Shown: positions 2,880 through 5,208 of the stretch, in pieces
How positions within the stretch are numbered: the first letter of the stretch is position 1
Layout: every line of letters starts with the position of its first letter
From: Nostocaceae cyanobacterium
GTDB lineage: Bacteria > Cyanobacteriota > Cyanobacteriia > Cyanobacteriales > Nostocaceae
Direction: 5' to 3'
DNA: 14,468 nt
Assembly: GCA_035299225.1 (NCBI GenBank)
Contig: DATGXB010000113.1
Location: 1 to 14,468, forward strand
Program-made: the position numbers and the translations under genes
The notes under the pieces: model-generated
Told to the model about the DNA's origin: nothing
The model's database searches: none
The model's input: the letters and a program-made list of their open reading frames with translations, nothing else

Positions 2880-3335
2880 ATGGAACCGATAACTCTAGCC
2901 ACAGCCGTAGCAACCCTGATGTTCTCTGAAACCATTAAAGAAACTGGAAAAAACCTTGGACAAGGAATTTCTGAACAAGCAGGACAATTGTTTAATCTGA
3001 TTCGGGAAAGATTTCAACAAGCAGGAACAGAGGGACTTTTAACCAGAACTGAAAAAGACCCCAATGAGAAAAATATCACCAAATTTCAAGACGAGTTAGA
3101 AACCCAATTGCAAGAAGACGAAGATTTTGCTCAACGTGTCCGGGAAATAGTCAAACAGTTAGAACCTGTGGTCAAAAAACGTCAAGTAATGGCTAGTGGA
3201 ATTAAAGTAGACGGAGCATTAGAAGCTGAAAATATGAAACAGAAAGCATCAGAAAGTAGTTCTTCAGAACAGGAAATGTTCACAGACGTAGAAGCAAAAA
3301 GTATTAAACTTGGTAACTTAACTCAAGAAGGCTAA
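2880..3335 (+). CDS. Small helical protein with a hydrophobic N-terminal helix and C-terminal duplicated short motif; candidate Bell/HeLo-like executioner partner of the downstream NB-ARC protein
   Basis: 151-aa ORF. Residues 3-15 (PITLATAVATLMF) are uncharged and hydrophobic. Residues ~17-100 are charged and helix-prone (QDELETQLQEDEDFAQRVREIVKQLE). The tail is QVMASGIKVDGALEAENMKQ, then the linker KASESSSSEQEMFTDVEA, then KSIKLGNLTQEG. The stop at 3333-3335 lies 4 nt before the next ATG. No enzymatic motif was recognised. Confidence 0.55.
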   Translation: MEPITLATAVATLMFSETIKETGKNLGQGISEQAGQLFNLIRERFQQAGTEGLLTRTEKDPNEKNITKFQDELETQLQEDEDFAQRVREIVKQLEPVVKKRQVMASGIKVDGALEAENMKQKASESSSSEQEMFTDVEAKSIKLGNLTQEG

Positions 3336-3339
3336 ACTA

Positions 3340-5208
3340 ATGAACATTCAACCCACTCCCGAACAGATTTTACAAAGCATTCTCAAAAATGTTTCAGTTG
3401 GCGGAAATTTGACCACAGGAGATATTACCCAAATTCTCAATTTATGGGTTGTTATTGAACAACAAGATATTTTTACATCAAAAGAAATTCCCCAAAATAT
3501 CCCCCGCAGTGACATCATTAAATTTGTGGGACGTGCTGAAGTTTTAGTGAACTTGCATAAAAAGCTACAAAATACCTCTGTAATTGCTGTTCAGGGAATG
3601 GGAGGACTAGGAAAAACTGAGTTAGCAACACAGTATGCACTCATTCACCTATTACTCAAAACCTATCCAGGGGGAATTTGTTGGTTACGCGCTGGAAAAG
3701 AAAATATAAATATAGGGACTCAGATTTTACAATTTGCTACAACTAAATTAGGACTTAAGCTGCCAGACAATTTGGACGCAGTTAAACAAGTTGATTACTG
3801 TTGGTCAAATTGGCGACGAGATGGGGATGTGTTAATAGTTTTGGATGATGTTACAGACTATCAAAGTGTAAAACCTTATTTACCGCCAGCATCACTAAAG
3901 TTTAAATTACTAATTACTTCTAGACTACAGTTAGATTCACCACAGTCTATTTCTTTAAATTTTTTGGATGAGTCACCAGCATTGGAACTGTTACAAACTT
4001 GGGTAGGGGAAAAGGTCACGCAAGAATTAGAAACAGCAAAAGAACTTTGTGAGTTTTTAGGTTATTTACCTTTAGCTTTAAACTTAGTAGGCAGGTACAT
4101 TAAAAAGCGTAATATTTCTTTAGCGAAAATGTTGCGGAGATTAGAGAAAGAAAAGATTACTCATCAAGCCCTAGCCAGAAATGAAAAAGACCCTACTTGG
4201 ACATTAAATGTAAATTCAGGTGTAATTGCAGCTTTTGAATTAAGTTGGTCAGAATTAAGTGATGATGCTAAAGAATTAGCAGTTTTACTCAGTTTATTTG
4301 CTTTAGCACCTATTCCTTGGTCATTAGTTGAAAAGGTAAAAACGGTCAGAGATGTAGAACAGTTGGAAGATAGCCGAATAGAATTAGAAAATTTACACCT
4401 GCTGCAAAGTAAAGAAAATTATGAATTACATCCATTAATTCGCCAATTTTTTCAACTTAAGCAGAATGAAATAAACGAAACGGAAGAATTAAAACGCGCC
4501 TTTTGCCAAACAATGGTAGAAGTTGCAAAGAAAATTCCTGACACAATCACTCTACAACAAGTTACTGATATTTCTCCTCAACTACCACACATAGCAGAAG
4601 TAGCAAACAATCTCATTGAATATGTCAGCGATAATGATTTAATCTGGCCTTTCTGGGGTAATGTTACATTTTACAAAGATCAGGGGTTATATGCTCAAGC
4701 TTTACCTTGGTGTCAGCAATGTCTAGAGACCACTAAACAAAGCTTGGGAGAAGAACATCCCGACTTTGCCACTAGCCTGAACAATTTGGCGTTCCTCTAC
4801 AACTCACAAGGCAGATACAGTGAAGCAGAACCCCTGTATCGGCAAGCATTGGAACTGAGGCGACGGGTGCTGGGAGAAGAACATCCCGACTTTGCCACTA
4901 GCCTGAACAATTTGGCGTTACTCTACTCCTCACAAGGCAGATACAGTGAAGCAGAACCCCTGTATCGGCAAGCATTGGAACTCTGGCGACGGGTGCTGGG
5001 AGAAGAACATCCCGACTTTGCCACTAGCCTGAACAATTTGGCGGGACTCTACGACTCACAAGGCAGATACAGTGAAGCAGAACCCCTGTATCGGCAAGCA
5101 TTGGAGATTTGCGAAAAAAGTTTAGGGGTAAATCATCCGCACACGGTTACTGTTAGTGAAAATTTGCAAATCTGCCAACAAGCTTTAGATAAATTATCAA
5201 ATCAATAA
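3340..5208 (+). CDS. NB-ARC (AP-ATPase/STAND) NTPase with C-terminal TPR repeats; bacterial NLR-like protein
   Basis: 622-aa ORF. NB-ARC motifs are FVGR (aa 62-65), Walker A GMGGLGKT (aa 86-93, nt 3595-3618), Walker B VLIVLDD (164-170), LLITSR (190-195) and the GLPL-type motif GYLPLAL (241-247). The C-terminus has three near-identical 42-aa TPR units (LGEEHPDFATSLNNLAxLYxSQGRYSEAEPLYRQALEL). Only ~55 aa precede the NTPase, so there is no effector domain. GAAGG (3327-3331) lies 8 nt upstream of the ATG. Confidence 0.9.
   Translation: MNIQPTPEQILQSILKNVSVGGNLTTGDITQILNLWVVIEQQDIFTSKEIPQNIPRSDIIKFVGRAEVLVNLHKKLQNTSVIAVQGMGGLGKTELATQYALIHLLLKTYPGGICWLRAGKENINIGTQILQFATTKLGLKLPDNLDAVKQVDYCWSNWRRDGDVLIVLDDVTDYQSVKPYLPPASLKFKLLITSRLQLDSPQSISLNFLDESPALELLQTWVGEKVTQELETAKELCEFLGYLPLALNLVGRYIKKRNISLAKMLRRLEKEKITHQALARNEKDPTWTLNVNSGVIAAFELSWSELSDDAKELAVLLSLFALAPIPWSLVEKVKTVRDVEQLEDSRIELENLHLLQSKENYELHPLIRQFFQLKQNEINETEELKRAFCQTMVEVAKKIPDTITLQQVTDISPQLPHIAEVANNLIEYVSDNDLIWPFWGNVTFYKDQGLYAQALPWCQQCLETTKQSLGEEHPDFATSLNNLAFLYNSQGRYSEAEPLYRQALELRRRVLGEEHPDFATSLNNLALLYSSQGRYSEAEPLYRQALELWRRVLGEEHPDFATSLNNLAGLYDSQGRYSEAEPLYRQALEICEKSLGVNHPHTVTVSENLQICQQALDKLSNQ
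4746..5105 (+). repeat. Tandem 126-bp repeat (2.9 copies) encoding 42-aa TPR units inside the NB-ARC gene
   Basis: Units start at 4746, 4872 and 4998. The DNA is identical except at codons 4792-4794/4918-4920/5044-5046 (ttc/tta/gga), codons 4801-4803/4927-4929/5053-5055 (aac/tcc/gac), and ctg agg versus ctc tgg near the ends of units 1 and 2. Confidence 0.95.

Follow-up and report, generated by a model that had tools for sequence, protein, structure and literature searches.

A 14,468-nt stretch of contig DATGXB010000113.1 from a Nostocaceae cyanobacterium (GCA_035299225.1), referred to here as the window, carries two adjacent genes that probably form an amyloid-signalling module. The first encodes a 151-aa effector of the Bell type and the second a 622-aa sensor of the NOD-like receptor (NLR) type. 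Both proteins contain a motif of about 24 residues belonging to class 4 of the bacterial amyloid signalling sequences (BASS4), which occurs twice at the C-terminus of the effector (repeats r1 and r2) and once at the N-terminus of the NLR (repeat r0). Pairs of Bell-domain proteins and NLRs that share such sequences are a published architecture (Dyrka et al., 2020; bioRxiv 10.1101/2020.01.06.895854), and templating of an amyloid fold from r0 onto r1 and r2 is proposed for the window pair by analogy. The features of the pair are as follows, in window coordinates with the evidence for each.

2880..3335, + strand: effector gene, 151 aa, Bell-type helical domain plus two BASS4 repeats (open reading frame, ORF; homologues)
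2880..3173, + strand: Bell-type N-terminal domain, residues 1-98 (AlphaFold2 helices; homology to listed Bell proteins)
3177..3248, + strand: BASS4 repeat r1, K100-A123, KRQVMASGIKVDGALEAENMKQKA (r1 profile, E 2e-10; AlphaFold2 strands)
3249..3263, + strand: Ser/Glu spacer, S124-S128 (variable and Gly/Ser/Arg-rich in the family alignment; no AlphaFold2 strand at 123-129)
3264..3332, + strand: BASS4 repeat r2, S129-G151, SEQEMFTDVEAKSIKLGNLTQEG (r2 profile, E 7e-12; AlphaFold2 strands)
3340..5208, + strand: gene for an NLR-type NTPase of the STAND class (signal transduction ATPases with numerous domains), 622 aa (ORF; Pfam domains)
3367..3438, + strand: BASS4 repeat r0, NLR residues I10-L33, ILQSILKNVSVGGNLTTGDITQIL (BASS4 profile, E 4e-12)
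3553..4161, + strand: NB-ARC domain, NLR residues 72-274 (Pfam PF00931, E 2e-14)
4666..5127, + strand: tetratricopeptide repeat (TPR) sensor repeats, NLR residues ~443-596 (TPR_12, E 6.6e-68; TPR_10, E 3.7e-62)

BASS4 motifs in both proteins

The bass_04 class combines the member motifs cya_02 and nlr_13 (Dyrka et al., 2020, Supplementary Table 2). A profile hidden Markov model made from the 14 published cya_02 alignment rows was compared with the 213 six-frame stretches of the window, over which all window E-values were computed. One match is in the NLR at residues 8-31 (E 4e-12), the other in the small protein (E 2.2e-7), where r2 is matched at residues 130-149 (domain E 6.6e-6). These are the only two stretches of the 213 to match, as every other one has E > 0.8. 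The initial annotation, made from the DNA letters and ORF translations of this region, had proposed scoring the two segments against BASS profiles, and both match. Applied to 73 related loci (8,689 stretches), the same profile yielded 144 domain matches, 101 at the C-terminal ends of effectors and 30 at the N-terminal ends of catalogued downstream genes. The remaining 13 all lie on the + strand. Ten of them, judged from their positions, start shortly past an effector with an uncatalogued downstream ORF, two fall in a frameshifted effector (locus L069), and one sits between effector and following gene (L040).

The 73 loci come from a survey that took one genome per species, and all are cyanobacterial. 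The protein search behind the family returned 25 effector homologues with 46-61% identity, and a record from a metagenome-assembled Nostocaceae genome contains the identical small protein. The homologues share a conserved C-terminal region, RQVMASGIExxGxLExxDMxQ...VEQEMxxDxKxxDIKLGNLxQES. Across the related loci, the motif of ~24 residues is conserved twice at the effector C-terminus and once at the N-terminus of the downstream gene, which opens with sequences such as VVQKIFENVQAGGNITVGNITQIY or ILQSILQNVQVGGNLTTGNITQ. The effector by itself contains two full repeats in every full-length family member, as seen in the aligned tails. Profiles for r1 and r0 were then built without window sequences. 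The r1 profile from other loci recovers window r1 (E 2e-10), window r2 at residues 130-150 (domain E 2.6e-4) and the window NLR at residues 12-31 (E 3.6e-4). The r0 profile, from 34 other loci with close relatives excluded, recovers the window NLR (E 4e-11) and gives effector r2 as its second-best match (E 0.033).

The placement of the motifs also fits BASS4, with r1 and r2 occupying residues 100-151 of 151 and r0 residues 10-33, ahead of NB-ARC. The Bell-side match given in Supplementary Table 2 (Dyrka et al., 2020) is either at the r1 position (96-122) or at the r2 position (125-151), and the published BASS4 alignments have the same register as found here, including a one-residue gap in r2. 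Three of the related loci, L012 and L013 (Cyanobiont 210A) and L039 (Scytonema sp. NIES-4073), are themselves listed there as BASS4 Bell/NLR pairs. Judged by its motif sequences and their arrangement, the window pair is a further member of the published BASS4 class.

All three copies follow one pattern of 24 columns, h1-x-Q3-x-h5-h6-x-[NDG]8-h9-x-h11-x-x-[ND]14-h15-x-h17-G18-[DN]19-h20-x-Q22, and the window pair retains every framework position (Q3, h5/6, h9, h11, h15, h17, [ND]19, h20, and Q22). The register is fixed by the family. At offset 0, the mean BLOSUM62 scores over 41 unique triples are +23.4 for r0-r1, +29.3 for r0-r2, and +26.2 for r1-r2, while all other offsets from -8 to +8 are negative for r0 against r1 and r2 (41 unique pairs). 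Scores are less negative at offsets of ±5-6 because the motif holds an internal half-rung quasi-repeat (h-x-h-G-[ND]-h).

This quasi-repeat also accounts for two misleading matches in the initial annotation. It had aligned effector residues 101-123 with NTPase residues 11-33 and counted five identities, and this alignment stands: ungapped, it has five identities and a BLOSUM62 score of 14, and its register is backed by the whole family (Q..19 residues..Q). It had also described an exact GNLT match between the second effector copy and the NTPase, which proves to be five residues off register, as effector G145-Q149 (GNLTQ) pairs with NLR G27-Q31 (GDITQ) and not with G22-T25. The IK-h-G-x-L match drawn between the two effector copies is likewise off register, by 5-6 residues. 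The second copy, taken to be C-terminally truncated at residues 140-151, is instead the second half of a full r2 at 129-151 (SEQEMFTDVE-AKSIKLGNLTQEG), which lacks one residue compared with r1 and r0. What had been read as a Ser/Glu-rich linker of ~16 residues contains the first half of r2, and the spacer between r1 and r2 (S124-S128) measures only ~5-7 residues. The overall layout of two copies at the effector C-terminus and one at the N-terminus of the NB-ARC protein is present as described and corresponds to the published Bell/NLR architecture.

The structure predicted for the effector agrees with this anatomy. In the AlphaFold2 model, strands are found in r1 at residues 101-103, 113-116, and 119-122 and at the equivalent positions in r2 (130-132, 141-144, and 147-150). 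The two strand sets are offset by 28-29 residues, the same as the repeat register derived from the sequences. They are paired in the monomer with a moderate predicted local distance difference test score (pLDDT) of 60-82. A predicted helical N-terminal domain is thus followed by predicted beta rungs, and the analysis supports reading the pair as a HET-s-like amyloid-signalling layout.

The Bell domain, the NLR, and their surroundings

A conserved N-terminal motif ('MEPIS') has been described for Bell-type proteins, with a hydrophobic first helix and an acidic residue at position 2 or 3. The effector starts with MEPITLATAVATLMFSE, which fits this motif through its hydrophobic helix 1 and the acidic residue at position 2, and M1 and E2 are invariant in the 25 effector homologues. 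Bell domains are further characterised as all-helical domains of ~100 residues, forming a bundle of about five helices. The AlphaFold2 model of the effector, computed with the 25-sequence alignment (mean pLDDT 79.7), places helices at residues 3-15, 17-22, 28-47, 51-59, 63-79, and 81-98, thus spanning 3-98, with pLDDT 86-94 in blocks of residues 31-90. No Pfam, NCBIfam, or PADLOC family was found for the small protein, for which these searches gave sub-threshold noise only. The link to the Bell proteins comes through homology, since the L012 and L013 effectors OYE01065.1 and OYD94771.1, with 49-50% identity and E 3e-40 in whole-protein tblastn, are listed as Bell-side proteins in Supplementary Table 2 (Dyrka et al., 2020).

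Residues 1-98 alone have 147 representative homologues in a library of 1.8 billion proteins, and 54 of these match BASS4 repeat profiles; others end in different G/N/Q-rich motifs. Such alternative C-termini (homologues P0027-P0172) include '...EVKGSAFG...NNKW', '...SSIGN...TIGDINKY', and the BASS6-like 'ASGERSVATGG'. The combination of one Bell domain with varied C-terminal motifs matches the modularity described for Bell domains. In a few homologues the domain is found inside larger proteins of 290-680 aa (P0053, P0071, P0074, P0091, P0113, and P0156).

The 622-aa protein combines NB-ARC with C-terminal TPR repeats, the domain content by which NLR-type STAND NTPases are recognised. Its Walker A motif (GMGGLGKT, starting at residue 86) and its Walker B motif (LIVLDDV) are both intact. 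The DNA encoding the TPR region forms a tandem repeat at 4745-5105 with a period of 126 nt, 2.9 copies, and 96% matches, which encodes three near-identical TPR units of 42 aa. According to Dyrka et al. (2020), this hallmark of 'high internal conservation' is linked to fast diversification of the repeats of NLRs.

In the ORF map, the start codon of the NLR lies 4 bp past the stop codon of the effector on the same strand, and spacing of 3-5 bp between effector and partner is seen in nearly all related loci with a complete effector. Given this close spacing, the two genes are probably co-transcribed. Gene adjacency within 5 kb, usually collinear, defines BASS pairs in the published work and is found here as well; 91% of the published pairs are collinear (Dyrka et al., 2020). 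The neighbouring genes encode an aldo-keto reductase and Uma2, DUF1499, and DUF433 proteins, and a further neighbour appears to be a leucyl-tRNA synthetase from a reading of its unscanned translation.

Upstream of the effector gene, nested short repeats lie in the intergenic region (2667-2765). Two exact copies of TTCTGCATCCCGGTGCAC (2667 and 2730) flank two copies of AATGYAACCCRATACATT (2689 and 2710), each of which could form a hairpin with a 6-bp stem, and a degenerate third copy of the TTCTGCATCCCGGTGCAC type is located at ~2751-2765. None of these repeats is expected by chance; the 18-nt repeats were missed by general repeat finding and confirmed by a direct DNA search. The repeats may represent a cyanobacterial dispersed repeat or an operator.

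Proposed mechanism, alternatives, and pair specificity

In the proposed mechanism, drawn by analogy from HET-S/NWD2 and Bab/Agp, the NB-ARC/TPR protein would be the sensor and the 151-aa Bell protein with r1 and r2 the executioner. Recognition of a ligand by the TPR domain would lead to oligomerisation through NB-ARC, gathering several N-terminal r0 motifs into a cross-beta fold. This seed would then template r1 and r2 into a two-rung, beta-solenoid-like amyloid, and the conversion would release the N-terminal helix of the Bell domain for attack on the membrane. The outcome would be regulated cell death, as abortive infection or another non-self response.

Several results weigh against this mechanism. 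A Foldseek search of the Protein Data Bank (PDB) with the whole AlphaFold2 effector model, including the beta tail, returned no significant match (best E 0.7). The coiled-coil (CC) domain of potato Rx (4m70) appeared at E 0.9, which is not significant, so that a structural link of the effector to Bab, HeLo, or CC domains is unconfirmed by this search. The genes around the pair in the window are ordinary or housekeeping genes with no defence island among them, and PADLOC gave no match for the locus. BASS1 and BASS3 are the motifs that Dyrka et al. (2020) name in their experimental sections, and BASS4 is not among them. As to the beta structure expected in the initial annotation, two strand sets are predicted in r1 and r2, and over r0 single-sequence AlphaFold2 of NLR residues 1-75 predicts low-confidence helices (pLDDT 62), an uninformative result that nevertheless lends no support. 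The window pair taken alone shows no significant similarity: the best ungapped 23-mer between effector tail and NLR head scores 17, a value matched by 16.7% of shuffles, and Smith-Waterman scores against shuffles give p=0.13 for r1-r0, p=0.07 for r2-r0, and p=0.38 for r1-r2. Finally, the similarity is poorly specific to pairs. Permuting partners among 41 unique pairs, with no correction for phylogeny, gives p=0.51 for r0-r1 and a weak signal of p=0.013 for r0-r2. The own-pair score of the window (27, with a median of 55) is the second lowest of 44, and the window r0 scores lower with its own effector than with any of the 40 others.

A first alternative is that the similarity is due to chance and the two segments are functionally unrelated, and the tests on the window pair justify the caution about chance in the initial annotation. 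Since these pair-only tests are not significant, the case rests on the family evidence, and there a chance origin is refuted by the BASS4 profile matches in the window and across the 73 loci. The similarity of the window pair alone is within chance and is above chance at the family level, and coincidence is an explanation of next to no probability.

A second alternative is that the shared motif is a docking module rather than an amyloid. Here r0 would bind a soluble two-rung r1/r2 unit stoichiometrically, adding itself by a strand or rung and thereby holding the effector or setting it free, with no self-propagating polymerisation. The AlphaFold2 monomer, which already pairs the r1 and r2 strand sets with moderate confidence, would accord with such a unit, as would the scarcity of pair-specific co-variation and the naming of BASS1 and BASS3, not BASS4, in the published experiments. 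However, AlphaFold2 often folds amyloid repeats intramolecularly, the composition and layout of the motif match families shown to form prions and fibrils, and the motif is retained on very different partner proteins. Docking is therefore considered unlikely, and amyloid templating stays the preferred reading.

The initial annotation had proposed testing whether the two segments are conserved and co-vary within orthologous pairs. Conservation across loci is strong, and co-variation within pairs is weak or absent. The lack of co-evolution at the pair level agrees with the published BASS4 pairs, in which the longest common stretches comprise just 6-10 residues (Dyrka et al., 2020). The window effector is 73% identical to homologue P0005 in the Bell domain (1-98) and 25% in the repeat region (99-151), and relative to P0006 the values are 53% and 66%. 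In comparisons that covered loci L013, L014, L030, and L037, the NB-ARC domain of the window has its highest identities (72-73%) with NLRs paired to effectors of the other repeat subtype. These identities suggest that the effector is a mosaic whose amyloid cassette was exchanged at the Bell/BASS junction.

Such an exchange raises a third alternative, namely that the module is decaying or mismatched, so that r0 matches the repeats of its own effector poorly and the NLR either activates the effector inefficiently or leaves it to answer another BASS4 sensor in the genome. The low own-pair score, the last rank of the own effector among 41 for the window r0, the mosaic effector, and the affinity of NB-ARC to NLRs with the other effector type would all fit. 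In opposition to this, both ORFs are intact, all framework positions of the motif are kept, and Walker A and Walker B are preserved, while similarity at the level of the family and not of the pair is the rule in BASS4. A failing module is thus quite improbable, more so than docking, and a working module that signals by amyloid templating continues to be favoured.

Several genomes contain two or three loci of the effector family (L002 and L059; L039 and L057; L018, L038, and L042; L021 and L044; L014 and L029; L028 and L035; L046 and L049; L031 and L036), and in Tolypothrix campylonemoides two such loci share one scaffold of 43.6 kb. Together with the absence of co-variation at the pair level, this poses the question of cross-talk between modules.

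The partner of the effector also varies, and the BASS4 motif is kept at its N-terminus even where the downstream protein is not NB-ARC. In L001, L002, L005, and L052, the effector is followed by a protein of ~170 aa with no Pfam family (ORF at about 4460-4975; in L005 at 559-1074) and then by an overlapping ORF of ~420 aa, also without a family. The N-terminus of the ~170-aa protein has a clear BASS4 motif (E ~1e-6 with a profile made from NB-ARC partners only), and the L003 partner resembles it with a weaker match (E 0.08). In L006, L007, L009, L010, L045, and L057, the partners are TPR proteins that lack an NTPase domain and have a BASS4-like start, and their sequences look as if a hydrophobic, possibly membrane-spanning segment follows the motif. 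Partners of ~870 aa with weak HEAT matches and a BASS4-like start occur in L027, L036, L061, and L062, and a NACHT protein with a BASS4-like start in L040. Profile support for the TPR and ~870-aa groups is marginal (E 0.002-0.34 where detected), and the partners of L007, L027, L057, and L061 have no BASS4 match at E<=1 with the profile from NB-ARC partners.

The NLRs of L021 (3402-3530), L039 (4831-4960), and L069 (4568-4700) carry an extra Q/N/G-rich segment of ~35 residues, IQQQAENSTLSGGMQAIQGDNNIQLQGNSQ, before the BASS4 motif. Because of this segment, their Walker A lies at about residue 116 instead of 85. The segment may represent an additional motif of a different type. In L069 (~3995-4450), the Bell ORF is only 80 aa long, with the BASS4 repeats located in a different stretch of the + strand, and L064, L066, and L070-L073 consist of N-terminal Bell fragments with no motif-bearing neighbour; the effectors of all these loci appear to be degraded.

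The near-absence of co-variation within pairs, the repeat cassette that seems to have moved separately from both Bell domain and NLR, the two or three loci in several genomes, and the BASS4-like N-termini on non-NLR partners together prompt the tentative proposal that BASS4 is a currency common to the family and not a pair-specific code. The proposal is doubtful. If true, several different sensors in one genome could fire any BASS4 Bell effector in a cross-talking network, with the window pair as one of its recombined nodes.

For a hypothetical 151-aa protein and its neighbour, this gives a likely role in a filamentous cyanobacterium, as a module of regulated cell death or immunity. Its architecture and motif class, and close orthologues too, were already published in 2020. 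The present analysis adds a corrected anatomy of BASS4, with two full rungs of ~24 residues, a spacer of 5-7 residues, and one register common to r0. Only the lack of pair-level co-variation, the apparent cassette exchange, the non-NLR partners, and the several loci per genome go beyond the published picture. The observations on co-variation, mosaicism, and partners bear on sensor-effector specificity in amyloid signalling.

Comparison with known systems

The closest known systems are the published BASS4 Bell/NLR pairs, which resemble the window pair in effector length, Bell domain, number of repeats, and spacing of a few base pairs. Their NLR, likewise NB-ARC/TPR, is 72% identical to that of the window across the 300 aa surrounding the P-loop. 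The window r0 is near-identical to the BASS4 motif listed for the NLR OYD94772.1, ILQSILQNVQVGGNLTTGNITQ, differing at 3 of 22 residues (ILQSILQNVQVGGNLTTGNITQ vs. ILQSILKNVSVGGNLTTGDITQ). In contrast, the window effector repeats are of another BASS4 subtype (RQVMASG.../EQEM...GNLTQ) than the published INQIVLKG...GDINL/VNQEAVVD...GNVNM.

[quoted passage not shown] The likeness is one of analogy, not homology, and a Pfam scan (E <= 1) found no HeLo or HET-s prion-domain family in the small protein. The systems also differ in their NLRs (NB-ARC/TPR in the window, NACHT/WD in NWD2), in the loop between the repeats (~5-7 residues in the window, ~15 in HET-S), and in their hosts, the window pair being bacterial.

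Among bacterial systems, a function has been demonstrated only for Bab (BASS11), which together with Agp mediates amyloid-dependent antiphage abortive infection in E. coli ECOR25 (Ibarlosa et al., 2024; bioRxiv 10.1101/2024.11.07.622273). Bab is also a Bell-type effector with a conserved MEP-type N-terminal helix, and its C-terminal motif is common to the N-terminus of the adjacent sensor. However, this motif is a single copy of ~20 aa in BASS11 as opposed to two copies of BASS4, the Agp sensor is of the TPR-GreA/B-C-PIN type and not an NLR, and the 'Babybell' domain of Bab (~80 aa) is shorter than the Bell domain of the window effector.

Amyloid formation has been demonstrated for BASS1, BASS3, and BASS11. 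The BASS1 and BASS3 (RHIM-like, after the RIP homotypic interaction motif) pairs of Streptomyces and other Actinobacteria have the same Bell/NLR architecture as the window pair, and Bell proteins with two or three pseudorepeats are known from BASS1 and BASS6 as well. Although their motif sequences are unrelated to the BASS4 motif of the window, BASS1 and BASS3 have been validated experimentally as forming prions and fibrils (Dyrka et al., 2020).

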